64,000 nt of DNA from Bacteroidales bacterium (GCA_023231065.1 JALNWE010000001.1:13005-77004), one strand, 5' to 3'. Positions 29,154 through 57,391 are shown, counted from the stretch's first letter. Numbers and translations are program-made. Notes: a model not told the origin generated them from the letters alone.

Positions 29154-29181
29154 TTTTTTACTTTTACAATTAGTTTTTTAT
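29148..29181 (+). terminator. AT-only hairpin + T-run between regulatory and structural halves of locus 2
   Basis: AACTAATT/AATTAGTT 8-bp stem, 12-nt loop, then TTTTAT. Weak because there are no GC pairs. Confidence 0.3.
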
Positions 29182-29239
29182 AAAAAAGTTAATAGAAGAA
29201 CAATAAAATTTTACCATTTTTGCAGTGAAAGATTTAGCA

Positions 29240-29779: not shown

Positions 29780-29800
29780 TAAATTTTAAATAAATTGTTT

Positions 29801-30199: not shown

Positions 30200-30217
30200 A
30201 CATCCGGGAGCAATAAT

Positions 30218-32011: not shown

Positions 32012-32024
32012 TCAGGAGGAATAC

Positions 32025-33797: not shown

Positions 33798-33839
33798 TAC
33801 AGTTGTAATATCAGAAGTACCTATAAATAAAAGGCAATT

Positions 33840-34319
33840 ATGGCAAAGATTAAATTATCAGAAAAAAAATTGGAGGAGCTCAAGGCAGTCTGCAAATCCT
33901 TTAACAATGAAAAGGGAGAGTTGATTAATGTTCTCCATAAGGCACAAGGAATTTTCGGGTACCTTCCGGCCGAAGTCCAGGAAGTGATTTCCAAAGAACT
34001 GAATGTTTCTGTCGCACATGTATATGGTATTGTAACTTTTTATTCATTTTTCACGATGACTCCCAAAGGAGAGCATCCCGTTTCGATCTGTTTGGGGACA
34101 GCCTGCTATGTCAGAGGCGCTGAAAAAGTATTAGAGGAGTTCAAACGGGTCTTGAAAATCCAGGTTGGTGAAACGACTCCTGATGGGAAATTTTCACTCA
34201 GTTGCCTCCGTTGTGTTGGCGCCTGTGGACTTGCCCCTGTCGTGCTTGTGGGTGAAAAAGTTTATGGACGGGTTTCTCCTGACGGGGTCAAAGATATCGT
34301 TGCAGAATACAACAGCTAA
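33840..34319 (+). CDS. hydC: NuoE-like [2Fe-2S] subunit (locus 2)
   Basis: 159 aa. ICLGTACYVRG...SCLRCVGACGLAP. Confidence 0.9.
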   Translation: MAKIKLSEKKLEELKAVCKSFNNEKGELINVLHKAQGIFGYLPAEVQEVISKELNVSVAHVYGIVTFYSFFTMTPKGEHPVSICLGTACYVRGAEKVLEEFKRVLKIQVGETTPDGKFSLSCLRCVGACGLAPVVLVGEKVYGRVSPDGVKDIVAEYNS

Positions 34320-34345
34320 TTGTCTTTGGTTAATACTTTATGTAA

Positions 34346-34384
34346 AAAGCCTGCAGGGTGGAAATCCTACGGGCTTTTATTTTA
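34346..34384 (+). terminator. intrinsic terminator after hydC (locus 2)
   Basis: GCCTGCAGG...CCTACGGGC imperfect stem (one mismatch, one GU) followed by TTTTATTTT. Confidence 0.65.
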
Positions 34385-34435
34385 CGGGTAATTAGAAAAA
34401 CGCTGAATAGGATGAATGTGTCCAGGTCAGGAATG

Positions 34436-35674: not shown

Positions 35675-37520
35675 TTACCGAATTGAGCATTTGTTCTGTT
35701 TTTGCTGCCCCTTCGCCGAGCAAATAAGCAATTTTCTGAACGGTTTCAAAATTTTCATCGATAACTTCGGTCAGACGATTAATAATTTGTTCTTTTCTGA
35801 CTTCAGGGACATACATGTCGCGCAGGATTCCACCCACATATTTATGGCTCCGGATGGGAAAAATGGAAATGCTGAGCTTATTCTCTTCGTACAAAACATC
35901 TTTATGTTCTATATATTCATCGGTGGAGAGGACATAAGAAAACATTTTATAAATATTGACAGGAAGCAAGGTTTTCAGATCTGCTCCAACCAACCCCGGA
36001 ATAACTTCATCCACCAGGGTCGCTTCTTCGCCAAGGATGCGGATGAATGCCTTGTTGGATTGTATAACTTTTAATTTATCATCAACAATTACAACGCCGG
36101 ATACGAGTTTCTGCAACATGGCAGATACGATATTGTTTGCCTCTTTTTGCGCCTCCTGTTCGTTTTTTGCTTTTTCCTCTGATTCTTTCAGGGCAGCCTG
36201 TGTCTTTGCCAGTTTTTCATTGGTGGCACGAAGGGTCCGGATATATTCCTGTCTGTTTTTTCCGCTAAAGACATGACACATTTCGGTTGTTGCCAATCCC
36301 TGAGCTATGGCAATAGCAAATTCCCGACAATTTGAATAACCGCAGGATTCACAGCCCACCTCGTTGTTTTTATCATCTTCCCGGTGGATCATTTTAAGCA
36401 CTTCCACTATTTTTTGTTCTTCAGGAACTGGTAAGCGTTGATCATCGGCGTTGAATTGCCTTGACAGGTCAAGGTCTTCACAAGCAGCCACCTGATCTTC
36501 CCAGGTATTCTTGTCAAATGTTGTAAGCCGTTTGTTGGCGTAATCAGTAACCAGGGTCATCCGGAGGAATTTTTCCCCAGCTGGCGAGGTACCGGGGCCC
36601 ATCAGGCATCCTTCATCATAAAACATATTAAAATGCCTTTTGATCCTATCAATCCGGGAATCGAATTCCTTCACTGCATCGATCATATCGTTGCGTCCCT
36701 CAGTCGTGATCACATTTCCAGTCAGTAAATCTTCACTGATATTGACACTTTGGAGAATTCCGTTGGCTATCGGATACAGGGAGCCTTTATAACCCAGGGG
36801 AGGGTCAAATTCAGAAAATTCAAGTTGATTTTCCCTGATATTAAACTGCGTGAAAAGTTCACGTAGCTCTACAAAAGTCAAAACTGCATCAATTTTAGCG
36901 TCCCCTTCAAATTTTAACGCTTCTTCCTTAGTAGCGATACAGGGGCCTATAAAGATTATTTTCAGATCCTGACCGTATTTTTTCCGGAGAACCTTGGCAG
37001 TGGCGACCATAGGAGAAACAACCGGTACCAGATTATTGATAAGTTCCGGATAATATTTTTCAATAAAGGCAACAACCGTCGGGCAATTAGCGGAAATGTG
37101 GTAGCGTCCTTTAAAATTCTCGAATATTTCTTTATATTTTCTGGCAACAAGGTCAACGCCGAAAGATACTTCGCTGACGTATGTGAATCCGAGTTGTTTG
37201 ATCATTTCAACGAATTTCCTGTAGTCTGTTATATCATGGAATTCGCCTGAAATTGTAGGGTCGCAGATGGCAGCAATTTTTTGGCCTGATGCCAGCAAGG
37301 CTTTTGTTTCACCGATAGAACTACGGTAAGAAATGGCGCCTGGGGAACAAGCCCTGTAGCAGCTTCCGCAGCCTATGCAACGCGCGGGGATGATGGACGG
37401 AAATTCCGTGTTGACATCAACCCTAATAGCTTTGACGGGGCATATTCTGATGCATGAATAGCATTTGATGCAGGATTCATGATGGATAAGCAGAAGATGA
37501 TCGGTACACATTGTGATCAA
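35643..37520 (-). CDS. hydS: putative sensory [FeFe]-hydrogenase-like protein with C-terminal PAS domain
   Basis: 625 aa. Two ferredoxin Cys motifs, ISANCPTVV / IGPCIATKEE / YDEGCLMGPG, CESCGYSNC-x16-C, a coiled linker, then a PAS-like ~120 aa. Confidence 0.85.
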   Translation of the reverse strand: MITMCTDHLLLIHHESCIKCYSCIRICPVKAIRVDVNTEFPSIIPARCIGCGSCYRACSPGAISYRSSIGETKALLASGQKIAAICDPTISGEFHDITDYRKFVEMIKQLGFTYVSEVSFGVDLVARKYKEIFENFKGRYHISANCPTVVAFIEKYYPELINNLVPVVSPMVATAKVLRKKYGQDLKIIFIGPCIATKEEALKFEGDAKIDAVLTFVELRELFTQFNIRENQLEFSEFDPPLGYKGSLYPIANGILQSVNISEDLLTGNVITTEGRNDMIDAVKEFDSRIDRIKRHFNMFYDEGCLMGPGTSPAGEKFLRMTLVTDYANKRLTTFDKNTWEDQVAACEDLDLSRQFNADDQRLPVPEEQKIVEVLKMIHREDDKNNEVGCESCGYSNCREFAIAIAQGLATTEMCHVFSGKNRQEYIRTLRATNEKLAKTQAALKESEEKAKNEQEAQKEANNIVSAMLQKLVSGVVIVDDKLKVIQSNKAFIRILGEEATLVDEVIPGLVGADLKTLLPVNIYKMFSYVLSTDEYIEHKDVLYEENKLSISIFPIRSHKYVGGILRDMYVPEVRKEQIINRLTEVIDENFETVQKIAYLLGEGAAKTEQMLNSVIESYRNPTGK

Positions 37521-37602
37521 TAATGATGGTCAAAGATATGAATATCTGTGGGTTTTTATGTTTTGGCTCAAAAAAAAAGGAAAAAACCTGGTAATAAAAT
37601 CT

Positions 37603-37637
37603 TTGTTTATTTTTTCACATTGCTAATTTTTTCACAG
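37603..37637. promoter_or_regulatory. two abutting Rex-operator-like palindromes (degenerate)
   Basis: TTGTTTATTTTTTCACAT (37603-37620) and TTGCTAATTTTTTCACAG (37620-37637) share one base, the same 17-bp register as at 25787-25821. They lie in the divergent hydS / hydC3 intergenic region. Confidence 0.5.
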
Positions 37638-37666
37638 GTAAATATTTCAGAATTAACTTTTATTGT

Positions 37667-37674
37667 TATTTTTG
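37667..37674 (+). promoter_or_regulatory. Bacteroidota -7 box TATTTTTG
   Basis: Matches TAnnTTTG, 29 bp upstream of the hydC3 ATG at 37703. Confidence 0.35.
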
Positions 37675-37702
37675 TAAAGAATAAACGATATATTTATGAT
37701 AT

Positions 37703-38167
37703 ATGGATGAAATTATCGGGATTGTTCTATCGAGATACCCGGCTGGCAAAAAAGAAGGGTTACTCCCGATCCTCCAGGAGATTCAGGAAGAAAAGGGTTT
37801 TTTAACCGGAGAAATCCTTAATGAAGTCTCTGCTTATCTTGACATTCCTGTCAATAAAATATATGGGGTCGCTGCATTTTATGATCAGTTTCGTTTCAAG
37901 CCCCATGGCCGTTTTCATATTCAATTATGCAATGGTACATCCTGTTATTTACACGGTTCTTTTCCTTTGTTGCGGGATTTGGAAAAGCAATTGAAAATCA
38001 AAGCTGGTAGCACGAGCCGTGACGGGAAGTTTAGCATAGAAATCATTCCCTGTATGGGGGCCTGCGAGCAATCACCTGTTATAAAAGTGAATGACACTTC
38101 TTACAATAAGGTCACCCAGGAAGATTTGAGGAAGATCATCCGAACCATAAAAGATAAATCTGAATAA
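37703..38167 (+). CDS. hydC: NuoE-like [2Fe-2S] subunit (locus 3)
   Basis: 154 aa. IQLCNGTSCYLHG...IIPCMGACEQSP. Confidence 0.9.
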   Translation: MDEIIGIVLSRYPAGKKEGLLPILQEIQEEKGFLTGEILNEVSAYLDIPVNKIYGVAAFYDQFRFKPHGRFHIQLCNGTSCYLHGSFPLLRDLEKQLKIKAGSTSRDGKFSIEIIPCMGACEQSPVIKVNDTSYNKVTQEDLRKIIRTIKDKSE

Positions 38168-38168
38168 A

Positions 38169-40118
38169 ATGTCAGCTTCAACCACCTTAAAGATTACAGA
38201 ATTTCTTGTTGAGAAGGTCGTAAAAAACTATTCGGGTTTTTATGATAAGGGAACTGCCGAGTTGCTTGCTCAGATAAAAAGGGAAAAAGTGACGCGCCCG
38301 GTCATTTATATAGGGATGGGGACTTGCGGTTTGGTTGCAGGAGCAGGTAAAACCATGAAAGCAGTTGAAAACTACCTGGAGGAAAACAAGCTGGATGCAG
38401 AAATAATCAAGGTTGGCTGCATCGGGCTCTGCTCTGCTGAACCAATCATGGATGTTCAATTACCTGGTAAGGCCCGGATTTCTTTTCAACATGCCACCGA
38501 AGAAAAGGTCGAAGACTTGCTGAATGCTGTTTTTCATCATACTCTGATGCACGACAATTCCCTGGGGCAATACCGTTTCTCCTCTCATGAGGATTGGCCT
38601 GGTTTACCTTATATTGAACAACTTCCATTTTTCGCTTCCCAGCGCAGGATTGTATTGCGAAATGCCGGGATTATTTCGCCTTTATCCATTCATGATTACA
38701 TGGCACGGGGTGGGTACAGGTCATTGTTCAAAACCGTTCTTAATTATACCCCTGAAAAGGTTTGTGAGATCATAGATCAGAGTGAATTAAGAGGACGCGC
38801 CGGCGGAGGGTACCCTACCGGTAAAAAATGGTTGGTCGCTTTGAATACTGGCAGCGATCAGAAATACCTTATTTGTAATGCTGACGAGAGTGATCCAGGC
38901 GCTTATATGGATCGGACACTTCTGGAAGGGGATCCTCACAGGGTGATCGAAGGGATGGCCATTGCAGCATATGCAATCGGAGCAAACAAAGCATTTATTT
39001 ACCTTAGGTCAGATTACAAGCAATCCATACTCCTGCTTCAACATGCATTACTGGAAGCCAGAACATGCGGTTTTTTAGGAGAAAATATTTTTGGGAGTGG
39101 GTTTAACCTGAGCGTTTTTATCCGCCAGGGCGCAGGCGCTTTTGTATGTGGTGAAGAGACCGCCCTGATATCGAGTCTCGAAGGAAGTCGCGGCATTCCT
39201 CATGAAAAACCCCCCTTTCCAGCTGAGAAGGGGTTGTTGGGACATCCTACCATTGTTAACAATGTTGAAACACTTGCCAATATACCACCCATTCTTGAAA
39301 ATGGCCCTTCATGGTTCAAAGCCATCGGTAAAAAAGGCAGCACCGGTACGAAAGTGATCTGCATCACCGGGAATGGGGTTCATACGGGTGTGGTAGAGAT
39401 TCCTATGGGAATAAAAATTTCGGATATTGTCTATTCCATCGCCGGAGGCATAAAAAATGATAAAAAACTGAAAGCCGTTCAGCTTGGAGGTCCGGCTGGC
39501 ATCTGCATTCCGCCCAAAGACCTGGATGTAGAAATAGGATATGATTCTTTGGAGGAGATCGGAGCCTCAACGGGTTTAGGAGGGCTTATCATTCTTGATG
39601 AAGATACCTGCATGGTAAATTTATCTAAATATTTTATGGATTTTCTACAAAAGGAAAGTTGTGGTAAGTGTATTCCCTGCCGTGAAGGAACAAAAAGAAT
39701 GTTGGAGATACTGGAAGGGATTACACGTCGGCCAAAAGAAGAGAGTTCGCATGAAACCCTTGAAAGGTTTAAAGGTGTTGTTCAACTGGAGAATCTGGCA
39801 GAAGTGATCAGGGATACTTCGTTATGTGGTTTGGGCCAGAATGCCTCAAACCCAGTTCTTTCAAGCCTTAAATGGTTCAGGGAAGAATATGAAGAACACA
39901 TCTTTGACAGGAAATGTCAGGCAGGCGTTTGTCATGATCTCAGGACTTTTTACATCGATGTTGAACTATGCAACGGATGCAATGTGTGTCAGAAAAAATG
40001 TCCTGAAAATGCCATCATTGGCTCCGTTAAGATGCCTCATTTCATCATCGAATCAAAATGTACCGGATGCGGAATCTGTTTTGACAGTTGTAAGTTCAGT
40101 GCGATCTATTTTAAATAA
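38169..40118 (+). CDS. hydB: NuoF-like flavoprotein subunit with extended N-terminal 2Fe-2S domain (locus 3)
   Basis: 649 aa. N-terminal GMGTCGLVAGAGKT...VGCIGLCSAEP, ELRGRAGGGYPTGKKW, ESCGKCIPCREG and a C-terminal 2x CxxCxxCxxxC. Confidence 0.93.
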   Translation: MSASTTLKITEFLVEKVVKNYSGFYDKGTAELLAQIKREKVTRPVIYIGMGTCGLVAGAGKTMKAVENYLEENKLDAEIIKVGCIGLCSAEPIMDVQLPGKARISFQHATEEKVEDLLNAVFHHTLMHDNSLGQYRFSSHEDWPGLPYIEQLPFFASQRRIVLRNAGIISPLSIHDYMARGGYRSLFKTVLNYTPEKVCEIIDQSELRGRAGGGYPTGKKWLVALNTGSDQKYLICNADESDPGAYMDRTLLEGDPHRVIEGMAIAAYAIGANKAFIYLRSDYKQSILLLQHALLEARTCGFLGENIFGSGFNLSVFIRQGAGAFVCGEETALISSLEGSRGIPHEKPPFPAEKGLLGHPTIVNNVETLANIPPILENGPSWFKAIGKKGSTGTKVICITGNGVHTGVVEIPMGIKISDIVYSIAGGIKNDKKLKAVQLGGPAGICIPPKDLDVEIGYDSLEEIGASTGLGGLIILDEDTCMVNLSKYFMDFLQKESCGKCIPCREGTKRMLEILEGITRRPKEESSHETLERFKGVVQLENLAEVIRDTSLCGLGQNASNPVLSSLKWFREEYEEHIFDRKCQAGVCHDLRTFYIDVELCNGCNVCQKKCPENAIIGSVKMPHFIIESKCTGCGICFDSCKFSAIYFK

Positions 40119-40125
40119 CAGGAAA

Positions 40126-41847
40126 ATGCAATTTGATATTGAGATCAACGATGAACATGTAACCGCAAAAAGGGGAGAAACGATAAAAAACGTTTTAGAC
40201 CGTATCGGGATCAAAGTACCGACATTGTGTTACATGAATGGATTTTCACCCACGGGAAGCTGTAGAATGTGTGTTGTGGAAGTAGATGGGATACCAGGGC
40301 TCGTTCCTTCCTGTTCTCATCTTGTTGAGGAGTGGATGAAGATAAAAACACATTCCCCACGCGTAATCAAAGCCAGAAAAACCCTGATTGAACTTTTGTT
40401 AGCCAGTCATCCAAATGATTGTCTTTATTGTGAAAAAAACGGTCAATGTGAACTTCAGGTTCTTGCGTCAGAGCTTCAGGTAAGGGAGCGAAAATATCAA
40501 TCGAAAAGGACTCCCATTCAAATTGATAAAATTTGTCCAAGTATTGAGCGGGATCCTGCAAAATGTGTCCTATGTGAAAGGTGTGTCAGGGTTTGCAATG
40601 AGATCATCGGGGTTGGCGCCATTGACATAATCGGCCGTGGAAGCGAGAGCCGTATTGGTACCACCTATAACAAAGGATTGAATGTTAAAGCCTGTGTAAA
40701 ATGCGGACAATGTATTCAGGTATGTCCAACGGGGGCATTAACAGAAAAACAGTCTTTTCAGGCTGTGATGGAAGCCCTGAATAAACCCGGACTTTTCCCC
40801 GTACTACAGTTTTCGCCCACAGTCCCAGCTGCTATTGCTGAGGAATTCAATCTGAAAACGAATAAAGATGTGCTAAACCTGTTAAGGGCCGCTTTAAAAA
40901 AGATGGGATTTCGCCAGGTATTTGATACTTCCATGGCAGCTGATCTGAACATCATGGAAGAGGCAGCTGAGTTCATCGACCGTTTAAAAAGCCAAAAAGA
41001 TCTTCCACTTTTTACATCTTGTTGCCCATCATGGGTTCATTTTGTCGAAGCGCTCAGGCCCGGATTTCTGCCAAAACTCTCTACCACCTTGCCCCCTCAG
41101 CAGATCATGGGTAGGCTTATCAAGCAGTATATTACCAGCTCGGCCGGGCAAAAGCCAGAGGATGTATATGTTGTCTCTGTGATGCCATGTACTGCTAAGA
41201 AAGATGAAGCAGGAAAAGATTATCTAAAGGATTCGGAAACCCGTTTTGTTGATGCAGTAATCACAACCCGTGAGTTAATCAAGATGATCCGGTTGATGGG
41301 CATCGATTTTTCAGGATTAGAGCCTGAGCCCAATGACTCTTCTTTTAGCATCAGGAGTTCTGCCAGTAAACTCTTTGGAGTTGCAGGAGGTCATCTTGAA
41401 GGTTTGATCAGAACCATTCACTTCAACCTTACAGGTCAGGAACTGTCACCATTAAAACTAACAGATTTAAGAGGTCTCAAAACCAGAAAAGAAACGAGGA
41501 TCAGACTTGGCAAGCAATTGATTAATGTGGTTTCAGTCAGTGGATTGGCCAACATTAAATCCATTCTTGATGAAATTGAAGCAGGTAAGGGAGATGTCCA
41601 TATCATTGAGGTCATGGCTTGTCCTTATGGATGCATTAACGGTGGAGGTCAGCCAAAAGGGAGTGATGAAAAGAGTTTAAAAGGAAGGATGAAAGTAATT
41701 TACGATGTTGATGAAGAAGAAATCATCAAAGTGGCTCATAAAAATCCGATTATGACTGGTTTATATGAAAAATTTCTTGACAGGCCCAACAGCGACAGAA
41801 ATAAAGAATTACTTCATGTTTTACGCAATTCAATCGAAATCCAATGA
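40126..41847 (+). CDS. hydA: [FeFe]-hydrogenase catalytic subunit (locus 3)
   Basis: Start at the ATG at 40126, after the hydB stop. P1 TSCCPSW, P2 MPCTAKKDE, P3 EVMACPYGCINGGGQP. Confidence 0.93.
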   Translation: MQFDIEINDEHVTAKRGETIKNVLDRIGIKVPTLCYMNGFSPTGSCRMCVVEVDGIPGLVPSCSHLVEEWMKIKTHSPRVIKARKTLIELLLASHPNDCLYCEKNGQCELQVLASELQVRERKYQSKRTPIQIDKICPSIERDPAKCVLCERCVRVCNEIIGVGAIDIIGRGSESRIGTTYNKGLNVKACVKCGQCIQVCPTGALTEKQSFQAVMEALNKPGLFPVLQFSPTVPAAIAEEFNLKTNKDVLNLLRAALKKMGFRQVFDTSMAADLNIMEEAAEFIDRLKSQKDLPLFTSCCPSWVHFVEALRPGFLPKLSTTLPPQQIMGRLIKQYITSSAGQKPEDVYVVSVMPCTAKKDEAGKDYLKDSETRFVDAVITTRELIKMIRLMGIDFSGLEPEPNDSSFSIRSSASKLFGVAGGHLEGLIRTIHFNLTGQELSPLKLTDLRGLKTRKETRIRLGKQLINVVSVSGLANIKSILDEIEAGKGDVHIIEVMACPYGCINGGGQPKGSDEKSLKGRMKVIYDVDEEEIIKVAHKNPIMTGLYEKFLDRPNSDRNKELLHVLRNSIEIQ

Positions 41848-43826
41848 GTCATTCTTATCACCGGCAGTTGGTTTTTACCATCAAGGAAAGATGCAGGGTT
41901 TGCTTTACCTGTGTAAGGGAATGTCCGGTAAAGGCCATTAAAATTATCAATGGCCAGGCTGAAGTTCTCAATGAGCGGTGCATTGGATGCGGGAATTGCG
42001 TCAAGGTTTGTAGCCAGGGTGCAAAAATCCCCCTGAATTCAGTCAATGAAGTGGAAGAAATGTTAGCATCTGATCATCTCATCGCGGCTTGCATTGCCCC
42101 CAGTTTTCCAGCTGAGTTTGAGGAAATTAAAGATCACCGGGTCATTGTTGGCATGGTACGGAAGCTTGGTTTCGATTTTGTTACGGAAGTTTCTTTTGGC
42201 GCTGATCTCGTAGCGCAAGCTTATGAAAAGAGACTTAAAAATGAACAGAAAGGAGGGGATATTTCTTCAGATTGTCCTGCCATTGTATATTTTATTCGTC
42301 AGTATAACCCCGATTTAGTCCCTTATCTTGCTCCTATTGCCTCCCCTATGGTTGCCATGACGCGGGTAATGAAAAAAAAACATGGGGCTGGTTTGAAGGT
42401 TGTTTTTATTGGACCTTGTTTCGCCAAAAAAGCAGAAACAGAAGAGGTGGATGAAGTATTGACCTTCAGGGAGCTCCGTGGAATGTTGCAGAAACGTAAT
42501 ATCTCTCCTGAAAACATTACCCCGTCTGAGTTTGATCCTCCATATAGCAGTAAGGGCGCCATTTTTCCTATAAGCCGGGGCCTCTATTATACTTCCAACA
42601 GTCAGGAAGCAATACCGGAAGAACATGTAGTGATAGCTGAAGGCCGAATTAACTTTAAGGAAGCCGTCAAGGAATTTGAAGATGGTTTTATCCGCGACAA
42701 GCACCTGATGCTACTTTGCTGTGAAGGATGTATCATGGGGCCCGGAACATCACCCGGAGGAAAACGGTTTTCACGCAGTGCGGCCGTCGGGGAATATGTC
42801 GGGAAAAAAATGCAGAATATTGACATGGAAACCTGGCAACGGGATATTGATTTTTACAGTGACATCGATCTTTCACAAAGTTTCAATCCAGAAGATCGCC
42901 GGCTCGGACCTGCCTCCAACGAAGATGTATTACAGGCGCTTCATGAAATGGGAAAGTTTACCGAGAAGGATCATCTGAATTGCGGGGCCTGTGGTTATGA
43001 TACATGCGTTGAGCATGCGACTGCCATTGTGCAGCGATTAGCTGAAACAGAGATGTGCCTACCATATACCATTGAAAAGTTACATGATTCGATCAATGAT
43101 CTTAATATTTCCAATGAAAAGCTTGCCCATGCGAAAGCAGCCTTAAAACAATCTGAGAAATTGGCCCACATGGGACAGCTTTCAGCCGGCATCGCCCACG
43201 AGTTGAATAACCCGCTGGGTGTTATTACCATGTACAGCAACATTTTAATGGATGAGGCCCCTGAAGGCGCTGCAGTCCGGGAGGATCTCAAACTGATCGT
43301 AGAACAAGCCGACCGGTGTAAAAAAATTGTCAGTGGTTTGTTAAACTTTGCCCGAAAGAACCAGGTGAATTTATCGGAGACGGATGTCGTAAAATTTCTC
43401 AACCACAGTGTCAATTCCATTATTAAGCCCGACAATATTACGATAACGGTTATACCCAACATCCAGGATCCCGTTGCTTTTCTTGATATTGATCAGATGA
43501 TGCAGGTTTTAACCAACCTTGAAAAGAATGCCATTGAAGCCATGCCCAATGGCGGATCGTTAACGGTCAGTGTAGAAGGGAATAAAGAGGAGGTTATTTT
43601 TATTGTGAAGGATACCGGAACAGGAATAGCGAAGGAATATATGGACAAACTTTTTACCCCGTTTTTTACCACCAAGGAGATGGGGAAAGGCACGGGGCTC
43701 GGGCTTGCCCTGATATATGGGATTGTCAAGATGCACAAAGGAAAGATCCACGTTGATTCCAATGATGATCCAGCCGCCGGACCCACCGGATCCACGTTCA
43801 GAATAACCGTACCGAGGGGCAGATGA
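41844..43826 (+). CDS. sensory [FeFe]-hydrogenase-like domain fused to a histidine kinase
   Basis: 660 aa. ATGA overlap with hydA3. Ferredoxin motifs, ISSDCPAIV / IGPCFAKK / LCCEGCIMGPG, CGACGYDTC-x16-C, then HisKA H-box IAHELNNPLG and HATPase_c (DTGTGI, GTGLGL). Confidence 0.88.
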   Translation: MSHSYHRQLVFTIKERCRVCFTCVRECPVKAIKIINGQAEVLNERCIGCGNCVKVCSQGAKIPLNSVNEVEEMLASDHLIAACIAPSFPAEFEEIKDHRVIVGMVRKLGFDFVTEVSFGADLVAQAYEKRLKNEQKGGDISSDCPAIVYFIRQYNPDLVPYLAPIASPMVAMTRVMKKKHGAGLKVVFIGPCFAKKAETEEVDEVLTFRELRGMLQKRNISPENITPSEFDPPYSSKGAIFPISRGLYYTSNSQEAIPEEHVVIAEGRINFKEAVKEFEDGFIRDKHLMLLCCEGCIMGPGTSPGGKRFSRSAAVGEYVGKKMQNIDMETWQRDIDFYSDIDLSQSFNPEDRRLGPASNEDVLQALHEMGKFTEKDHLNCGACGYDTCVEHATAIVQRLAETEMCLPYTIEKLHDSINDLNISNEKLAHAKAALKQSEKLAHMGQLSAGIAHELNNPLGVITMYSNILMDEAPEGAAVREDLKLIVEQADRCKKIVSGLLNFARKNQVNLSETDVVKFLNHSVNSIIKPDNITITVIPNIQDPVAFLDIDQMMQVLTNLEKNAIEAMPNGGSLTVSVEGNKEEVIFIVKDTGTGIAKEYMDKLFTPFFTTKEMGKGTGLGLALIYGIVKMHKGKIHVDSNDDPAAGPTGSTFRITVPRGR

Positions 43827-43908
43827 CCATTGACCATTGACCATTGACTATTGACTATTGACCATTGACTATTGACTATTGACCATTTGACTATTGACCA
43901 TTTGACTA
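43824..43908. repeat. 12-unit heptanucleotide tandem array TGACYAT starting on the TGA stop codon
   Basis: Units TGACCAT x3, TGACTAT x2, TGACCAT, TGACTAT x2, TGACCAT, T, TGACTAT, TGACCAT, T, TGACTA. It fills most of the 105-bp intergenic gap. Confidence 0.95.
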
Positions 43909-43930
43909 ACATATTAAAACAATCAGCAAG

Positions 43931-44335
43931 ATGAAACCGGGGAATGTGACAATTTTAATTGTGGATGATGATCAGGATTATCTGTTCCAGCTACAATCAA
44001 AAATTCAAAAATTTGGCTTTGAAACCATCACGGCAGATAGCCAGAAAGAAGCCGAGGAATTGATCGAAAAAATCAAGCCTGATCTTGCTATCCTTGATCT
44101 GATGATGGAGAACGAAGACAGCGGGTTCATCCTCTGCTACAAGATGAAAAAGAAGTACCCGGACGTACCGATTATTATTGCAACAGGGGTTATGGCGGAA
44201 ACGGGAATCAATTTTGATATCAATGACGAAAATAACCGTAAGTGGATTAAAGCTGATTGTTTCCTTGACAAGGGTATCCGTACGGAACGTCTAAAAGAAG
44301 AAATTGACAAATTGCTTATGAAATCCAAAACGTGA
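43931..44335 (+). CDS. single-domain response regulator (REC only)
   Basis: 134 aa. ILIVDDD...AILDLMM...T..K receiver signature with no output domain. Confidence 0.88.
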   Translation: MKPGNVTILIVDDDQDYLFQLQSKIQKFGFETITADSQKEAEELIEKIKPDLAILDLMMENEDSGFILCYKMKKKYPDVPIIIATGVMAETGINFDINDENNRKWIKADCFLDKGIRTERLKEEIDKLLMKSKT

Positions 44336-44381
44336 CCAGAAATTTTCGATTTTCCAAATATTTTGACCTGAATTCACCAAT

Positions 44382-45515
44382 ATGTCAACATTAAAAATTC
44401 TTGTTGTAGATGACGAACCCGGCATACGCAGCGGTGTCACACGGATATTAAGAAATTTCAGGGTTGACTACCCTTTTATGGATGAAGCCTTTGATTTTGA
44501 AGTCTTAGAAGCTTCGACGGGGGAAGAAGGAATAGAGATCATAGAAAATAACCTCCCTGATATTTTACTTCTCGACAATAAATTGCCAGGCATCCAGGGC
44601 ATTGAGGTCCTTGAATACATAAAAAAGAAGCAGAAGAACATTATCGTTGTTATGATAACTTCTTATGCTTCCCTGGAACTGGCTGTAAAAGCGACCAGCG
44701 ATGGGGCTTATGATTTTATCCCGAAACCATTTACGCCCCAGGAGTTGAAGTCATCGATAGAAAACATCACCAAGCGCGTTTTTCTTAAAAAGATGACCAA
44801 TAAATTACAGGATACAGGAAAGCAAATCAGGTTTACTTTTTTATCATTATTATCGCATGAATTAAAAGCGCCGCTTAATGCCATTGAAGGATATCTAAAG
44901 ATGATCAAAGAGCGGCAACAGGGCCCAAAAATCGAAGATTATGATGTGATGATCGACCGGTCGCTTGACCGTATCAAAGGGATGCGTAGCCTCATCCTTG
45001 ACCTTCTGGACCTGACGCGGGTTGAATCCGGTAAAACCAAACGAGATATAACAGATGTTGATTTGGTCCAGATTGCAAGGACCGCCATGGATACCATGCG
45101 ACCTTACGCGATACAACGGGACGTAAAACTGGTTTTACATGGGGTGTCACCCCTGATGCTTCAGGCAGATGCAGAGGAAATTGAAATTATTTTCAACAAC
45201 CTCATTTCCAATGCAATAAAATACAACAAGGATGGAGGGACCGTTGATTGTACCATTGAGAGGGCAGATAGTTTTATGGTGATCAAAGTGGTTGACACAG
45301 GCATAGGAATGAGCCAGGCTGAAATCGAAAAGATCTTTGAAGATTTTGTAAGGATTAAAAACGAAAAAACAAAAAACATATCAGGAAGCGGATTGGGTTT
45401 GCCTATTGTTAAAAAATTCATTGATGAATATTCGGGAAAAATAGAAGTAAGCAGTGTCCCGGATCAAGGAAGTACCTTTACAGTAACTTTACCAATTGAA
45501 AAACCATGTTTATAA
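44382..45515 (+). CDS. REC-HisKA-HATPase_c hybrid kinase
   Basis: 377 aa. ILVVDDE..LLLDNKLP receiver, H-box LSHELKAPLNAI, DTGIGM and GSGLGL. Confidence 0.88.
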   Translation: MSTLKILVVDDEPGIRSGVTRILRNFRVDYPFMDEAFDFEVLEASTGEEGIEIIENNLPDILLLDNKLPGIQGIEVLEYIKKKQKNIIVVMITSYASLELAVKATSDGAYDFIPKPFTPQELKSSIENITKRVFLKKMTNKLQDTGKQIRFTFLSLLSHELKAPLNAIEGYLKMIKERQQGPKIEDYDVMIDRSLDRIKGMRSLILDLLDLTRVESGKTKRDITDVDLVQIARTAMDTMRPYAIQRDVKLVLHGVSPLMLQADAEEIEIIFNNLISNAIKYNKDGGTVDCTIERADSFMVIKVVDTGIGMSQAEIEKIFEDFVRIKNEKTKNISGSGLGLPIVKKFIDEYSGKIEVSSVPDQGSTFTVTLPIEKPCL

Positions 45516-46147
45516 GAAATTTACCTCATAAGACAGTGGAGCGGTTGAGCCAATATCGCCGTTCTTTGCTGATGATCCTTTCCAAAGAGAAAACCCATGT
45601 ATTTTCCCATGAAATTGCCCAGATGCTGCATATCACCCCGGTTCAGGTACGAAGGGACCTGATGCTGATCGGATATTCCGGAAATCTGAGAAAAGGTTAT
45701 GATATCAGGGAGTTGATCGAACTGATAGGAAAAATCATAGACTCTGAGAAAGGCCAGCGTGTAGCGGTTGTCGGGCTTGGAAATTTAGGAAAGGCAATGA
45801 TCAGCTATTTTAAAGGTAAACGATCTAAACTCACTATCATTGCTGCTTTTGATATAAATCCGGAAAAAATAAACCGCGTCTATGACGGTGTTGCTTGCTA
45901 TCATGTCAATCAGATGACAGATATCATCAAGCAAAACAATATTTCGATCGGAATTGTATCTGTTCCGTCGGAGCAAGCCCCTGAGATTGCTGAGACCCTT
46001 GTATTGGCTGGCATCAAAGGCATTCTCAATTTCACCCCAAAGCCGCTTAATGTGCCGCCTTATGTATATCTCGAAGAATACGACATGATCACATCACTTG
46101 AAAAGGTTGCTTTCTTCGCAAAGAAAAATGATGAACGTTTTAAGTAG
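45506..46147 (+). CDS. rex: redox-sensing transcriptional repressor Rex
   Basis: 213 aa. N-terminal wHTH (ERLSQYRRSL...ITPVQVRRDL), Rossmann VVGLGNLGKA, AGIKGILNFTP. The ATG lies 10 nt inside the preceding kinase gene. Confidence 0.9.
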   Translation: MFIRNLPHKTVERLSQYRRSLLMILSKEKTHVFSHEIAQMLHITPVQVRRDLMLIGYSGNLRKGYDIRELIELIGKIIDSEKGQRVAVVGLGNLGKAMISYFKGKRSKLTIIAAFDINPEKINRVYDGVACYHVNQMTDIIKQNNISIGIVSVPSEQAPEIAETLVLAGIKGILNFTPKPLNVPPYVYLEEYDMITSLEKVAFFAKKNDERFK

Positions 46148-46158
46148 AAAAGCAGCCC

Positions 46159-47088
46159 GTGAATATTTTTTATGATTTTGAAAATGTATCAGGAATCCCG
46201 AATGCCGTTGTCACGACGGGGTCGTTTGATGGAGTGCATATTGGGCATAAAGTTATCCTGAACCGTCTGAAAAAGATCGCCGCAGAGATCGGAGGTGAAA
46301 CGGTATTGATTACTTTTCATCCGCACCCCCGTAAGGTACTCTATCCTGAAACAGCCGGGAAAGATCTATTTCTGATCAATTCGCAAAGGGAAAAGATATC
46401 CTTACTTCAGAAAGCGGGTTTGGATAACCTGATCATTGTTGAGTTTACCCTCTCCTTTTCAAGGATCACTTCAATGGATTTTGTTCAGAATATTTTACTG
46501 AACAAATTGCATGCGCGTAAAATCGTGATCGGTTTTAATCACCATTTTGGCCATAACCGCGAGGGAGATTATGATGCCCTGCGCAAATTAGGAGTAATCC
46601 ATGGTTTTGAAGTTGAAGAAATAGCAGAACAGGATATTCAGAATGAATCGGTAAGTTCAACGAAAATCAGGAATGCATTGAAGGAAGGCAATATACAGAA
46701 GGCAAATGCATACCTCGATCACCAATATATCATCATCGGTGTAGCGACAAAAAGCAGCGTCGTGTTGGAAGAAATAGGGTTCCCCTCCTATTCTGTAAAA
46801 ATTGAAGAAGATTGCAAACTCGTACCTCCGAATGGTGTATATGCTGTAACCGTGAGTGGTGAAGATTGTTTTTCGCGGGCGATGTGTTTTATCAGAAAAA
46901 ATGAGGAAGATCCAATAAATACAGAAGTAGCGGTACACCTGTTCGAAAATTACGGGCACATTGAAGGACAGGTTGTAACCCTTCTTTTTCACAAACACAT
47001 GAGAGAGGAAAGGTCATTGAAGACCCCTGAAGATTTAAAAAAACAATTGACCATCGATAAAAATCAGGTGGACGAACTTATTTTCTGA
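46159..47088 (+). CDS. ribF: bifunctional riboflavin kinase / FAD synthetase
   Basis: 309 aa. TTGSFDGVHIGH, SSTKIR, and a C-terminal riboflavin kinase domain. Confidence 0.9.
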   Translation: MNIFYDFENVSGIPNAVVTTGSFDGVHIGHKVILNRLKKIAAEIGGETVLITFHPHPRKVLYPETAGKDLFLINSQREKISLLQKAGLDNLIIVEFTLSFSRITSMDFVQNILLNKLHARKIVIGFNHHFGHNREGDYDALRKLGVIHGFEVEEIAEQDIQNESVSSTKIRNALKEGNIQKANAYLDHQYIIIGVATKSSVVLEEIGFPSYSVKIEEDCKLVPPNGVYAVTVSGEDCFSRAMCFIRKNEEDPINTEVAVHLFENYGHIEGQVVTLLFHKHMREERSLKTPEDLKKQLTIDKNQVDELIF

Positions 47089-47876
47089 TGCAACAACGAT
47101 TTTCCAATCATCTTAAAATAACATTTTTAGGCACCGGAACATCGATCGGCGTACCTGTAATTACTTGTGATTGCCCTGTTTGTACATCAGCTAATCCAAA
47201 AGATAAGCGATTCCGTACTTCCATCATGATCGAAGTGAACGGGGTGACCGTTGTGGTGGATTGCGGCCCTGATTTCAGGATTCAGATGTTGCGTGAAAAT
47301 GTCATGAACCTGGATGCTGTTCTATTCACCCATGAACATCGCGATCACATAGCAGGTCTTGATGATGTGAGAGCTTTCAATTATGTCCTGAACAAGAAAA
47401 TTGATATTTTCGGCACTCCGCAAGTCATGGAGGCCATCCATGTTGAGTTTCCCTATATTTTTTCAACGACAAGGTATTTTGGCGCTCCCCAGCTCAACAT
47501 CCATCCGATTGATTTAAATCCTTTTCAGGTCAAGGGTTTAGAATTTATTCCCATTCGGGTTTTCCATGACAAATTGCCTGTAACCGGATACAGGATCGGG
47601 GATTTTACCTATATTACAGATGCCAGTTTTATTGCCGAAGAAGAACTGGAAAAAATTAAAGGATCCAGGGTTATTGTTTTAAATGCGCTCCGTAACTCAA
47701 AACACATTTCCCATTTTTCTGTTGCCGAAGCCGTTGAAATACTAACAAAGCTGGAACCGGAAGCTGCTTATCTAACCCATTTAAGTCATTTTGTTGGTTT
47801 ACATGAGGATGTAAATTGCCGGTTACCTGATTTTATTCAATTGGCCTATGATGGGTTGGTGTTGGAGCTTTTGTGA
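47088..47876 (+). CDS. MBL-fold metallo-hydrolase (PhnP-like)
   Basis: 262 aa. FTHEHRDHIAGLDD metal-binding motif and an N-terminal CDCPVC Zn-ribbon-like motif. Confidence 0.8.
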   Translation: MQQRFSNHLKITFLGTGTSIGVPVITCDCPVCTSANPKDKRFRTSIMIEVNGVTVVVDCGPDFRIQMLRENVMNLDAVLFTHEHRDHIAGLDDVRAFNYVLNKKIDIFGTPQVMEAIHVEFPYIFSTTRYFGAPQLNIHPIDLNPFQVKGLEFIPIRVFHDKLPVTGYRIGDFTYITDASFIAEEELEKIKGSRVIVLNALRNSKHISHFSVAEAVEILTKLEPEAAYLTHLSHFVGLHEDVNCRLPDFIQLAYDGLVLELL

Positions 47877-47908
47877 AAGGTGAAAAGTAAACAGTGAAAA
47901 GTGAAAGA
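47873..47908. repeat. 5-unit heptanucleotide array (TGAAARG type) starting on the TGA stop codon
   Basis: TGAAAGG TGAAAAG TAAACAG TGAAAAG TGAAAGA from 47874. Confidence 0.7.
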
Positions 47909-47925
47909 TATAATTGCAGTGGGGG

Positions 47926-48618
47926 ATGAGGGTTGATATATTGACATTATTTCCGGAGATGTTCAGGGGGCCGTTTGATCAATCAATACTGAAACGGGCT
48001 CAGGATAAAGGCTTGGTAGAAATCAACCTGTATAATATTCGTGATTGGTCGACCCAGAAACACAAACGGGTAGATGATTACCCATTTGGCGGTGGCGCGG
48101 GTATGGTTATGATGGTTGAACCGGTTGTCAGGTGCATTGAAGCCCTGAAATCCAGGATCGTTTATGATGACATCATTTATCTGAGCCCTGACGGTACTTT
48201 GCTGGACCAGCGATTAGCCAACCATTTATCGCTCAGTCACAACCTTTTGATTTTATGCGGGCATTATAAAGGGATCGATGAACGGATCCGCGAACATTTC
48301 ATCACCCGTGAAATTTCAATTGGAGACTATGTCCTTTCCGGTGGGGAATTAGCCGCTATGGTTTTCACAGATGCTTTGGTACGGCTGATTCCGGGAGTTT
48401 TAAATGATGAGACTTCTGCCCTTTCTGATTCCTTTCAGGATAATCTGGTTTCTCCTCCGGTTTACACTCGTCCCAGTGATTTTCGTGGAATGAAAGTCCC
48501 TGATGTACTCCTTTCAGGTAATGACAAGGAGATCGCGTTATGGCGCGATGAACAATCAATTATGCGGACCCGGGAGCGGCGTCCTGGGCTTCATTCCGAC
48601 ATTTTTCCTCCATCCTGA
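47926..48618 (+). CDS. trmD: tRNA (guanine37-N1)-methyltransferase
   Basis: [14 protein letters not shown]-terminus and [20 protein letters not shown] motifs. Start moved to the ATG at 47926. Confidence 0.93.
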
Positions 48619-48674
48619 ACCGATAGAAAACAACAAAAAATTCCAATAAGGCATACTGGTAATAGATAATTTAC

Positions 48675-48682
48675 TATATTTG
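48675..48682 (+). promoter_or_regulatory. Bacteroidota -7 box TATATTTG
   Basis: Matches TAnnTTTG, 42 bp upstream of rplS. Confidence 0.4.
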
Positions 48683-48723
48683 CACTCTTTTTAGTGCGAA
48701 CCTGATAATATTACACAAACGCC

Positions 48724-49080
48724 ATGAATAAAGCGGAAACAATGAAGTATGTCGAAGAGACAGTGATACAAAAGAACGAGTTGCCATCATTTAAAGCTGG
48801 GGATACCATTACTGTACATTATAAGATCAGAGAAGGTAATAAAGAACGTATTCAGACTTTCCAGGGGGTTGTATTGCAACGCAGTGGTAAAGGTTTGAAT
48901 GGGACATTCACAGTCAGGAAGATTTCCGGAAACATTGGTGTTGAGCGTATTTTTCCTTCCACTTCACCTTTTATTTACAAGATCGATGTGAATAAGCGTG
49001 GGGTTGTCCGCAGGGCGCGGATTTACTACCTTCGTGGATTGCAGGGTAAAAAAGCCAGGATCAAAGAAGAACGTTTATAG
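48724..49080 (+). CDS. rplS: 50S ribosomal protein L19
   Basis: 118 aa. [24 protein letters not shown] motif. Confidence 0.95.
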
Positions 49081-49102
49081 AAGAGTATTATTTATCACAC
49101 AT

Positions 49103-49131
49103 AAAAAAACCCGCGTACAGCGGGTTTTTTT
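49103..49131. terminator. bidirectional intrinsic terminator
   Basis: A7 - ACCCGC GTACA GCGGGT - T7, between convergent genes. Confidence 0.85.
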
Positions 49132-49134
49132 ATT

Positions 49135-49335
49135 TTAGTTCATCACCAGGTTGATGAAACCGTTGTTGTGGGTTGTGAGAACAGTAAGCGCTTTCGAGTA
49201 GCTGAGCAGGTTACGGATCACCGATTCACTGGGAGAAACTACCTTTCTGATCCTCCGTTTTTCATTGGAAGGATAGTTTACCTTTGCATATTTCTCTGAC
49301 AAAGAATAAATTGTAGCAGGTCGCTTCATAGGCAA
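49135..49335 (-). CDS. small hypothetical protein downstream of the ECF sigma factor
   Basis: 66-aa ORF bounded by the terminator. No motif recognised and coding status is uncertain. Confidence 0.3.
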   Translation of the reverse strand: MPMKRPATIYSLSEKYAKVNYPSNEKRRIRKVVSPSESVIRNLLSYSKALTVLTTHNNGFINLVMN

Positions 49336-49418
49336 AATTTTGGTTAGGAATTTTATTCATACCTATGAAACGGGAATTACTTCCCAAATATTTTATAAAA
49401 GAAAAAAAAAGTTGTTAA

Positions 49419-50024
49419 CTACAATGAAAGGATAACCTCTTTTTCCTTGATCAGCTTACGGAGGTTGATCAGGGCATAACGCATACGGCCTAAAGCGGTG
49501 TTGATGCTGACATTGGTTACTTCGGCAATATCCTTGAAGCTCATATCATTATAATGTCGCATGACAAGGACTTCTTTCTGTTCTTTGGGAAGATAGTCGA
49601 TAAGTTTTTTTACATCTTTATGGATCTGCTCTGTTATCAGAATATCTTCGACTGATTCGACCGGGATCCTGACCTTATCAAAAATATCGTAATCATCGTT
49701 ATTTTCAATAATAGGTATCCGTTTGGATTTGCGGAAGTAATCGATGATCAGATTGTGTGCAATCCGCATAACCCATTGGATGAACTTTCCTTCTTCCTTA
49801 TAGGTCCCGGACCGGAAGGTGTTGATCACCTTGATAAAAGTATCCTGAAACAGATCTTCTGCCAGGTCCTTATCTTTTACGATCATAAGGATATACGCGA
49901 AAACACGATTCTTGTGACGGTGAATGAGTTTTTCGAGGGCGGATTCCTGACCAGCTAAATATTTACCGATCAAATCCTGATCACTAACGACATGGGCTTG
50001 CATTGGGCCTCCTTTTTTATTCAA
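49419..50024 (-). CDS. ECF-type sigma-70 family RNA polymerase sigma factor
   Basis: 201 aa. Region 2 (DLFQDTFIKV..W..RIAHNLIIDYFR) and region 4 (MSFKDIAEVTNVSINTALGRMRYA). Confidence 0.88.
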   Translation of the reverse strand: MNKKGGPMQAHVVSDQDLIGKYLAGQESALEKLIHRHKNRVFAYILMIVKDKDLAEDLFQDTFIKVINTFRSGTYKEEGKFIQWVMRIAHNLIIDYFRKSKRIPIIENNDDYDIFDKVRIPVESVEDILITEQIHKDVKKLIDYLPKEQKEVLVMRHYNDMSFKDIAEVTNVSINTALGRMRYALINLRKLIKEKEVILSL

Positions 50025-50173
50025 AAAAGAGTATAAGTCTAGCCTATAATTTCCCTCCTATATTTTATGCAAATCAAGATTGATTGCGTTAGTTTATGAT
50101 ACAATGATACGATATTTAACGATTATAGTTGCGCAAATGTAAATAAAAAAAACCGAAAAGCAAGTTTTCTTTA

Positions 50174-50181
50174 TAATTTTG
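50174..50181 (+). promoter_or_regulatory. Bacteroidota -7 box TAATTTTG
   Basis: Matches TAnnTTTG, 30 bp upstream of uvrA. Confidence 0.4.
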
Positions 50182-50210
50182 CCCAATTCAATGCGAGAGA
50201 CGAATAAAAG

Positions 50211-57338: not shown

Positions 57339-57391
57339 CGGATGCTGGATGGTTGATGGTTGATGATTGATGATTGATGGTTGATGATTGA
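57336..57391. repeat. 8-unit heptanucleotide array (TGRTTGA type) starting on the TGA stop codon
   Basis: TGACGGA TGCTGGA TGGTTGA TGGTTGA TGATTGA TGATTGA TGGTTGA TGATTGA. Confidence 0.9.

Follow-up and report, generated by a model that had tools for sequence, protein, structure and literature searches.

What becomes of the signal of a sensory [FeFe] hydrogenase, and does it meet the NADH signal carried by the repressor Rex? The question is raised by a gene cluster in a 64,000-nucleotide stretch of Bacteroidales DNA (GCA_023231065.1, JALNWE010000001.1:13005-77004), which we analyzed as a whole and refer to as the window. Here, a catalytic hydrogenase operon (hydC, hydB, and hydA) continues into a gene for a hydrogenase-like sensor fused to a histidine kinase (HydS-HK), followed by genes for a stand-alone receiver protein (REC), a receiver-histidine kinase hybrid (Rec-HK), and Rex (Table 1). 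The original prediction, made from the nucleotide sequence alone, held that an H2 signal passing through the phosphorelay and an NADH/NAD+ signal acting through Rex converge at this locus, possibly by contact between a receiver and Rex, and that such a coupling would be new. We found that the linkage of rex to the relay genes most likely places a regulator beside its target rather than forming a dedicated REC-Rex device. The relay is a separately conserved, putatively H2-sensing branch that occurs with or without rex in cis.

Table 1. Hydrogenase gene sets, relay genes, rex, repeat array, and Rex-operator-like boxes, with positions counted from the first nucleotide of the window
Feature	Position	Strand	Description
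Boxes, operon 1	18301-18364		Two boxes, 18301-18318 and 18347-18364, upstream of hydCBA set 1
hydCBA set 1	18418-21899		First trimeric hydrogenase gene set
Box pair, operon 2	25787-25821		TTGTGAATTTATTCACAT / TTGTGAATATTTTAACAA; best tandem pair in the window
Hydrogenase cluster 2	25883-34319		DRTGG, HATPase-only, 461-aa HydS-like, PHP, hydB, hydA, hydC
Divergent HydS-PAS and phosphatase pair	34436-37520	-	HydS paralogue with PAS-like region and SpoIIE/PP2C phosphatase
Box pair, hydC set 3 leader	37603-37637		TTGTTTATTTTTTCACAT / TTGCTAATTTTTTCACAG; 17-bp offset; divergent leader between HydS-PAS and hydC
hydCBA set 3	37703-41847	+	Continues directly into HydS-HK
hydC	37703-38167	+	NuoE-like [2Fe-2S] subunit; Pfam 2Fe-2S_thioredx, 1e-46
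hydB	38169-40118	+	NuoF-like FMN/NAD(H)-binding subunit; Pfam Complex1_51K, NADH_4Fe-4S, Fer4
hydA	40126-41847	+	Catalytic group A [FeFe] hydrogenase subunit; 573-aa gene call
HydS-HK	41844-43826	+	660 aa; sensory-type H domain, helical linker, HisKA (His452), HATPase_c
Tandem repeat	43824-43902		TGACCAT x11; fills the HydS-HK/REC spacer (105 nt)
Stand-alone REC	43931-44335	+	134 aa; Pfam Response_reg, 5e-16
Rec-HK	44382-45515	+	377 aa; N-terminal receiver, linker helix, HisKA (His159), HATPase_c
rex	45506-46147	+	213-aa Rex; winged helix-turn-helix (PF06971) and Rossmann (PF02629) domains, GLGNLG; 11 nt upstream of ribF

A sensory hydrogenase-kinase fusion, two receiver proteins, and Rex

In the window, a hydrogenase island carries three sets of genes for trimeric hydrogenases, and the relay genes follow the third set. 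The hydA product of this set has intact H-cluster motifs (TSCCPSW, MPCTAKKDE, and MACPYGCINGGGQP) and scored 414 bits against TIGR02512, above its cut-off, and 661 bits against NF040763. An independent gene caller run on the public Bacteroidales metagenome-assembled contig (177,895 bp) gave the same genes. As predicted, hydA and the sensor gene overlap in an ATGA, the hydA stop (TGA) occupying 41845-41847 and the sensor start (ATG) 41844-41846.

The prediction that the sensor is a fusion of a HydS-like domain, HisKA, and HATPase_c also held: Pfam recognized two [4Fe-4S] clusters (Fer4), Fe_hyd_lg_C (1e-43), an FeS domain (PF04060), HisKA (9e-14), and HATPase_c (5e-24), and the H-box IAHELNNPLG is present. 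When aligned with the three HydA proteins of the window, HydS-HK retained the cluster-ligating cysteines (SSDCP, GPC, and CCEGC at the positions of TSCCP, MPC, and CxxxC), with the proton-relay Cys299 replaced by Asp and Met353 replaced by Gly; loss of these two residues was our criterion for a sensory type (PMC8163306, PMC10055695). A C-terminal FeS motif, Cx2Cx4Cx16C, could be read from the translation as C380-x2-C383-x4-C388-x16-C405. Among ~70 HydS-HK orthologues, SSDCP, IGPC, and LLCCEGC were nearly invariant. The Asp at the Cys299 position, within residues 141-145 (SSDCP), was invariant in the same ~70 orthologues; Asp is the sole Cys299 substitution that preserves activity in prototypical enzymes and is not listed among the common residues at this position of sensory hydrogenases (PMC10055695).

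The helix that follows the FeS motif (NEKLA..AALK.SE) is common to HydS-HK and to the PAS-type paralogue encoded divergently from hydC, and in HydS-HK it leads straight to the HisKA histidine; HydS-HK can thus be described as a HydS with a kinase core in place of the PAS-like region. This core is nearest to those of ZraS and AtoS. An AlphaFold2 model of the HydS-HK monomer, built from a 14-sequence alignment, had a mean pLDDT of 60.6, with linker residues 369-468 below 50, and was rejected as of insufficient quality. The cysteine ligands, the loss of Cys299 and Met353, the FeS motifs, the kinase, and the neighboring group A operon match HydDB group C1, described as "histidine kinase-linked (putative)" sensory [FeFe] hydrogenases (PMC5037454). 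Judged by these features, HydS-HK probably belongs with the group-C-type, histidine kinase-linked (C1) sensory hydrogenases, and H2 signaling is its putative role.

Both the REC-only protein and the REC-HisKA-HATPase hybrid that had been read from the DNA were recovered by Pfam at the positions given in Table 1. The stand-alone REC shows an acidic pocket (DDD12-14), an acceptor Asp within ILDLMM, Thr85, and Lys113, and its best NCBIfam match was the DVU0259/DivK-like single-domain family, at a score below the cut-off of that family. In Rec-HK, Pfam placed Response_reg at residues 6-126, HisKA at 152-217 (SHELKAPL), and HATPase_c at 263-373; no sensor domain, transmembrane segment, or output domain was found in this protein. 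Neither Pfam nor NCBIfam matched a DNA-binding or enzymatic output domain in any of the three relay proteins, in agreement with the original prediction. Its further claim, that Rex is the only DNA-binding protein encoded here, holds within 41844-46147 and fails for the island, which also encodes an OmpR-type regulator and an ECF sigma factor.

The kinases of HydS-HK and Rec-HK are 27% identical, and the two receivers are ~30% identical over 61 aligned residues, which fits two distinct transfer steps. A precedent for a kinase controlled by its own receiver is LvrB, in which the linker helices zip together and release the catalytic domain once an upstream kinase has phosphorylated the receiver, and in whose pathway the effector has no DNA-binding domain (PMC13269768). 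Rec-HK is not an LvrB orthologue: the LvrB family (NF047466) was not among its 25 best NCBIfam matches, and the LvrB structure (8vc9) was missing among its PDB matches at 1e-15. By sequence, Rec-HK shares the architecture of Rec-controlled kinases and not LvrB family membership, and its activation by receiver phosphorylation is putative.

The rex start codon (45506) lies 10 nt inside the Rec-HK gene, which ends at 45515, as had been noted. Its product scored above the cut-offs of three NCBIfam models (NF003995, 200.5 versus 126; NF003996, 185 versus 138; NF003994, 168 versus 130) and aligned over its full length with the Rex structures of Bacillus subtilis and Thermotoga maritima (PDB 2vt2, 4e-32), with GLGNLG kept. 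By both the family models and the structure alignment, it is a canonical Rex with no added domain. We therefore identify it, from its sequence, as a redox-sensing transcriptional repressor with predicted NADH-sensitive DNA binding.

The relay is conserved with or without rex in cis

HydS-HK homologues numbered more than 7,000 in the protein collection, with at least ~35 distinct clusters at 50% identity matching over their full length. When species-representative genomes were scanned, at least 541 of the 600 matched places listed held relatives. For the comparison of loci we used the 80 best (57 to 81% identity), nearly all labeled Bacteroidota and including Draconibacterium, Prolixibacteraceae, and Lentimicrobiaceae. 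Synteny was assessed by tblastn of the window's proteins, and 72 of the loci were long enough to judge. The order hydC-hydB-hydA-HydS-HK-REC-Rec-HK was kept in every one of these 72. The co-occurrence of rex with REC-kinase genes in other genomes, which had been proposed as a check, was also found: rex directly followed Rec-HK in 36 of the 72 species loci, and no rex lay in the 2 to 8 kb downstream of Rec-HK in the other 36.

The spacing of the two genes differed between clades, with rex overlapping Rec-HK by 4 to 13 nt in the clade at 72% identity or more and a gap of 10 to 78 nt in clades at 61 to 67%. On a neighbor-joining tree of the sensor, the rex-linked loci grouped into a single large clade, with ~5 losses. 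In clades that lack rex, genes for maturases (hydG, hydF, and hydE) come after Rec-HK, and hydC has one or two extra receiver-only genes ahead of it. Other arrangements were Rec-HK-rex-hydG (L029, L037, L038, L041, and L048), Rec-HK-rex-ribF-MBL-hydG (L052, L053, and L061), and Rec-HK-ribF-MBL-hydG with no rex (L049 and L056). These varied and intermediate arrangements indicate that rex is a genuine but facultative resident of the cluster.

We then considered seven more distant HydS-HK fusions, at 36 to 46% identity. The HydS-HK/REC/Rec-HK trio was present in six of the seven lineages, and L085 keeps only HydS-HK and REC. In an Armatimonadota genome, one of the six, the trio follows hydEF and nfnAB-like genes, with no rex. 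The gene order is rex-hydC-hydB-hydA-HydS-HK-REC-Rec-HK-hydE-hydG in L084 and rex-REC-hydCBA-HydS-HK-REC-Rec-HK-ECF sigma in L087. Thus, at least three configurations join rex to the hydrogenase operon, and two of them place it beside hydC and not beside the relay genes.

Two side observations concern the number of relay genes. In L086, two HydS-HK fusion genes (5906-7936 and 10001-11980) flank a single REC/Rec-HK pair. The extra receiver-only genes (126 to 173 aa) lie directly upstream of hydC, at ~100 to 700 nt in the rex-less loci among L025-L080 and also in L087 and L089; some carry a large insertion between beta-4 and beta-5, and some end 1 to 2 nt from the hydC start. These extra RECs, which in L087 and L089 lie at 5252-5671 and 14057-14437, share a D-x-MM-x4-GF loop with the REC of the window.

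Across ~87 loci, no DNA-binding response regulator was consistently encoded in cis. Three candidate outputs were rejected. A histidine kinase with a NarL-type regulator lies upstream in L030 and L075 and is missing in L042 and L054; an ECF sigma factor gene comes right after Rec-HK only in L087; and the window's own ECF sigma factor gene (49419-50024, minus strand) is on the other strand from the relay and is syntenic only in the closest clade.

Paired Rex-operator-like boxes precede the hydrogenase operons

Next, we looked for sites through which Rex might act. Scanning the window with the consensus TTGTGAA-N4-TTCACAA (Ravcheev et al. 2012, as cited in PMC8579813 and PMC8457756) gave 12 matches at three or fewer mismatches, six of which form three pairs at most ~120 bp upstream of the three hydrogenase operons. 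A position weight matrix (PWM) built from Rex sites of related loci and then run on the window ranked exactly these three pairs as its top six sites, at 16.6 to 22.8 bits, with the next site at 12.8 bits. The tandem pair of the hydC set 3 leader has counterparts at the orthologous place of related loci. In two leaders of the window, the pair ends ~30 bp upstream of a TAnnTTTG motif (37667-37674 at hydC set 3), which we take to be the Bacteroidetes -7 promoter element and so presumably the promoter. The boxes at 25787-25821 and 37603-37637 each consist of two 18-bp palindromes offset by 17 bp and sharing one base; the same geometry recurs at 5103-5137 of L084 and in many of L001-L024.

We also compared the number of sites with two or fewer mismatches in the 1.25 kb upstream of hydC, a region that makes up ~6% of the sequence, with the number elsewhere. 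Sites were concentrated in this region both in rex-linked loci (12 inside versus 4 outside, P = 4e-12) and in rex-less loci (21 inside versus 8 outside, P = 4e-20), where they were placed upstream of the extra REC genes. An earlier scan of 350 nt upstream of hydC had suggested that boxes track rex linkage; the wider scan of the rex-less loci ruled this out. The shorter scan misled because in rex-less operons the extra REC genes move the start, and with it the boxes, farther from hydC. In L084, a 17-bp-offset pair lies just upstream of rex, at the rex-hydC end; in L087, Rex-like sites lie both upstream and downstream of rex; and in the rex-less L088, two sites lie upstream of hydC. No Rex-like sites were found near the operon in L083, L085, or L089. 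On the strength of the consensus match and the positional enrichment, we predict that the boxes are Rex-type operators.

Separate NADH and H2 inputs as the favored explanation

The explanation that we favor, at a probability of roughly 0.6, is that of a bifurcating-type hydCBA operon with separate NADH (Rex) and H2 (relay) inputs acting in parallel. On the NADH side, Rex from the 3' side of the operon would bind the tandem operators in the hydC leader, as well as the equivalent operators of the island's two other hydrogenase operons. It would repress the hydrogenase operons at low NADH, and rex would thereby be autoregulated; as NADH builds up, Rex would come off its operators, and the NADH-oxidizing hydrogenase would be produced, as would the sensor, the relay, and Rex. 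On the H2 side, the redox state of the H-cluster and FeS clusters of HydS-HK, which is translationally coupled to hydA, would set the autophosphorylation of His452. The phosphoryl group would then move from HydS-HK to the two receivers encoded in cis; by analogy with LvrB, the kinase of Rec-HK would be turned on once its receiver is phosphorylated, and the stand-alone REC would be the likely terminal, CheY-like output, acting by protein-protein contact. We favor REC for this last role because of the lack of a consistent cis-encoded DNA-binding regulator and because L085 has HydS-HK and REC only, which also makes REC a probable direct substrate of HydS-HK in that lineage.

An ordinary linkage between regulator and target is suggested by several results together. 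The boxes precede three operons and are enriched with or without a linked rex, the trio is conserved to the same degree where rex is not in cis, and several distant lineages have no detectable Rex boxes. Moreover, the position of rex varies, either 3' beside Rec-HK or 5' beside hydC, and the 213-aa Rex is canonical. A new coupling between Rex and the relay is not needed to explain the observations. Of the convergence that had been predicted, the linkage stands, being kept in 36 of 72 loci and recurring at the 5' end in two distant lineages, and since it is real and conserved, it is plausible that H2 and NADH signals meet on a single gene cluster; a dedicated partnership is not indicated.

Some results weigh against this explanation. 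Single PWM scores of ~17 bits appeared in some shuffled sequences, so that the weight of the operator prediction rests on the pairing and placement of the boxes. The boxes of the hydC set 3 leader have three mismatches each to the consensus, a level that single sites in shuffled sequence reach as well, and ~40% of loci have no site at two or fewer mismatches. When we computed mutual information between the DHp of both kinases and the alpha-1 and loop segments of both receivers across 73 orthologous sets, interface and control values overlapped, and the order of phosphotransfer given above is our proposal. Lastly, the tight overlap of rex and Rec-HK across one clade would also be expected of a functional partnership, but we gave such spacing little weight because rex also lies 11 nt from ribF and the string of genes from hydC to rplS shows no predicted terminator until 49101.

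A functional partnership would have the relay end on Rex, with phosphorylated REC or Rec-HK binding Rex and altering its operator binding, so that H2 and NADH are integrated. The relay has no output domain at any locus examined, and the terminal REC therefore needs some protein to act on; through one clade, the Rec-HK gene runs 4 to 13 nt into rex; and because Rex boxes precede many rex-less loci, Rex is apparently available in those genomes, so that the absence of rex in cis is compatible with such a contact. We nevertheless consider it quite improbable, given that Rex has no added domain, that rex adjoins hydC and not the relay genes in L084 and L087, and that the lineages of L083, L085, and L089 keep the trio (in L085, HydS-HK and REC only) with neither rex nor Rex boxes at the locus. 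Furthermore, REC and Rec-HK diverge no more than HydS-HK between rex-linked and rex-less loci, and we know of no Rex partner protein. At the other extreme, rex might be linked to the relay by accident, as part of a housekeeping block (rex-ribF-MBL-trmD-rplS) unrelated to the hydrogenase and the relay. Such a block would account for the 11 nt between rex and ribF, for the tight packing of genes along 37703-49080 with no predicted terminator before 49101, and for L049 and L056, which retain ribF-MBL after Rec-HK without rex. It is hard to reconcile with Rex boxes before all three hyd operons, with loci where ribF is missing and rex stays with Rec-HK, followed by hydG, and with the independent linkage of rex at the 5' end in two distant lineages, and we regard it as highly improbable.

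The hydrogenase itself is worth attention equal to Rex as a target of REC. The stand-alone REC and its paralogues might bind HydABC and tune its activity to H2 with no transcriptional step, an output that we rate as unlikely. It would fit the absence of a DNA-binding regulator consistently in cis, the translational coupling of the sensor gene to hydA, and the placing of REC genes with the D-x-MM-x4-GF loop directly before hydC in L087, L089, and rex-less Bacteroidota, with the REC stop 1 to 2 nt from the hydC start in L087. This support is gene order only, however, and cognate regulators can be unlinked, LvrC not being among the Lvr genes (PMC13269768). Moreover, the solved HydABC complexes 7p5h and 8a6t, which share sequence with the subunits encoded here, are not known to include a receiver subunit. 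The favored explanation leaves the target of REC free, and we advance one extension of it tentatively, as unlikely on present evidence: a trio with no transcription-factor output, whose terminal REC, once H2 has triggered its phosphorylation, would dock on another product of the cluster, Rex or HydABC. If Rex were the docking target, it would be an integrator of two signals, H2 and NADH; if HydABC were the target, the result would be direct product feedback on a bifurcating hydrogenase.

Other genes and repeats of the island

Beside its three trimeric hydrogenases, the island holds three kinds of putative sensory [FeFe] hydrogenase. One (26669-28054) is M2e/group-D-like, with Met353 replaced by Thr, and is flanked by DRTGG, HATPase-only, and PHP genes; another is the PAS type, paired with a PP2C phosphatase; and the third is the kinase fusion (41844-43826). 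The PAS-type pair comprises a HydS paralogue with a C-terminal PAS-like region (35643-37520, minus strand) and a SpoIIE/PP2C phosphatase (34436-35674, minus strand). It is a phosphatase-linked (C3-like) sensory unit that shares its Rex-box leader with hydC, and it is kept across the rex-linked clade. At the position of LCCEGC in the kinase fusion, the PAS-type HydS of the window reads FYDEGC; most of its orthologues (L001-L072) have Asp or Asn for the Cys499-equivalent ligand of [4Fe-4S]H, and a few have FYCHGC.

A pair of genes for a histidine kinase (647 aa, with no recognised sensor domain) and an OmpR-type response regulator (24959-25675) occupies 23006-25675, between hydrogenase operons 1 and 2 and directly upstream of the best Rex-box pair; it is a possible further regulator of the island. 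In the hydA product of operon 1 (20106-21899), TSCSPGW stands in place of the L1 motif TSCCPxW, which puts a Ser at the second Cys of the pair (a cluster ligand by CpI numbering). When 34000-50500 was scanned with Rfam at E values of 1 or less, only subthreshold matches appeared, at the rplS terminator hairpin.

The spacer after the sensor gene is filled by repeats, as originally noted, in the form of 11 copies of a 7-bp unit. Other co-directional spacers of the window hold GTGAAAA x5 (47873-47906) and GATGATT x6 (57348-57391). The same HydS-HK/REC spacer contains heptamer arrays of unrelated sequence in L006, L007, L012, L014, L016, L019, L023, and L027, with CACTTAA, AAATTCA, CACTCAT, GAAGAGT, and GCGAAAG among the relatives' units. 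A locus-specific regulatory role for the array was rejected in view of these unrelated arrays in the relatives' spacer and in other spacers of the window; heptamer arrays look like a lineage-wide feature.

Significance and relation to known systems

The locus is an uncharacterized representative of known kinds. As for novelty, the genetic linkage of relay and rex stands from the original prediction, whereas sensory class C1, Rex repression of hydrogenase operons, and the neighborhood described in Elusimicrobia were already known. What this analysis adds is the cross-phylum conservation of a three-protein relay, the predicted Rex operators, and the facultative nature of rex linkage. In the literature searched, we found no paper on signaling by, or the biochemistry of, the kinase-fused sensory [FeFe] subclass, no published Rex regulon for Bacteroidota, and no interaction between Rex and a response regulator. 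The signal output of putative sensory [FeFe] hydrogenases is an open question, for which the fusion, REC, and Rec-HK define a compact module; it is conserved beside bifurcating hydrogenase genes in hundreds of Bacteroidota species and in other phyla, and the predicted operators belong to a phylum with no described Rex regulon. The output can be tested, as relatives carry the labels Draconibacterium and Prolixibacteraceae and this group has members in culture. Sediments, anaerobic digesters, and gut-like systems are settings in which the control of fermentative hydrogen production by H2 and NADH is important.

In Caldicellulosiruptor and Clostridium thermocellum, bifurcating [FeFe] hydrogenase operons are under Rex repression, as is rex (PMC8579813, PMC8457756). 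Those systems and the present one have in common a canonical Rex, palindromes of the type TTGTGAA-N4-TTCACAA or TTGTTAA-N4-TTAACAA in hydrogenase leaders, and self-control of rex, which here is predicted. What sets the present system apart is that rex is part of the hydrogenase cluster (located 3' here and 5' in other lineages), that the predicted operators overlap in tandem pairs, offset by 17 bp, and that the host belongs to Bacteroidota.

The closest known counterparts of the sensor are HydDB C1 and the related HydS proteins of T. maritima (M2f/C3, PMC10055695) and Thermoanaerobacter mathranii (M2e/group D, PMC8163306), with which it shares the cysteine ligands and the loss of Cys299 and Met353. 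It also has in common with them the N-terminal 2x[4Fe-4S] clusters, the C-terminal Cx2Cx4Cx16C motif, and the operon of a trimeric group A hydrogenase. In contrast to HydS-PAS proteins, the kinase core is fused directly after the signaling helix, in the position of PAS; a further difference is the invariant Asp of the HydS-HK family at position 299. A survey of Elusimicrobia described a group C hydrogenase-kinase HATPase fusion that adjoins a trimeric group A hydrogenase, Rex being one of the neighboring regulators (10.1101/765248). The same three ingredients thus occur there in another phylum; that survey did not analyze REC or Rec-HK, Rex boxes, or the constancy of the linkage.

The Lvr pathway of Leptospira (LvrA to LvrB to LvrC; PMC13269768, PMC5863495) resembles the relay in three ways: one kinase acts upstream of a second, soluble one that begins with a receiver (REC, alpha-S helix, DHp, CA); the relay proteins have no DNA-binding domain; and the effector works by protein-protein contact, as we propose for REC. 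Rec-HK differs from LvrB in family, as described above; in addition, the upstream kinase here is a hydrogenase fusion, and the locus encodes no REC-Bergerat (LvrC-like) protein.

A functional counterpart exists among [NiFe] hydrogenases. In the HoxBC-HoxJ-HoxA system of Cupriavidus necator, a sensory hydrogenase of low activity controls a histidine kinase that governs the genes for an energy-conserving hydrogenase. HydDB places this regulatory [NiFe] type in group 2b (PMC5037454). The two systems differ in their metal centers, [NiFe] there and [FeFe] here, and in the sensor and kinase being separate proteins there. They also differ at the output end, HoxA being a DNA-binding NtrC-type regulator encoded in cis.

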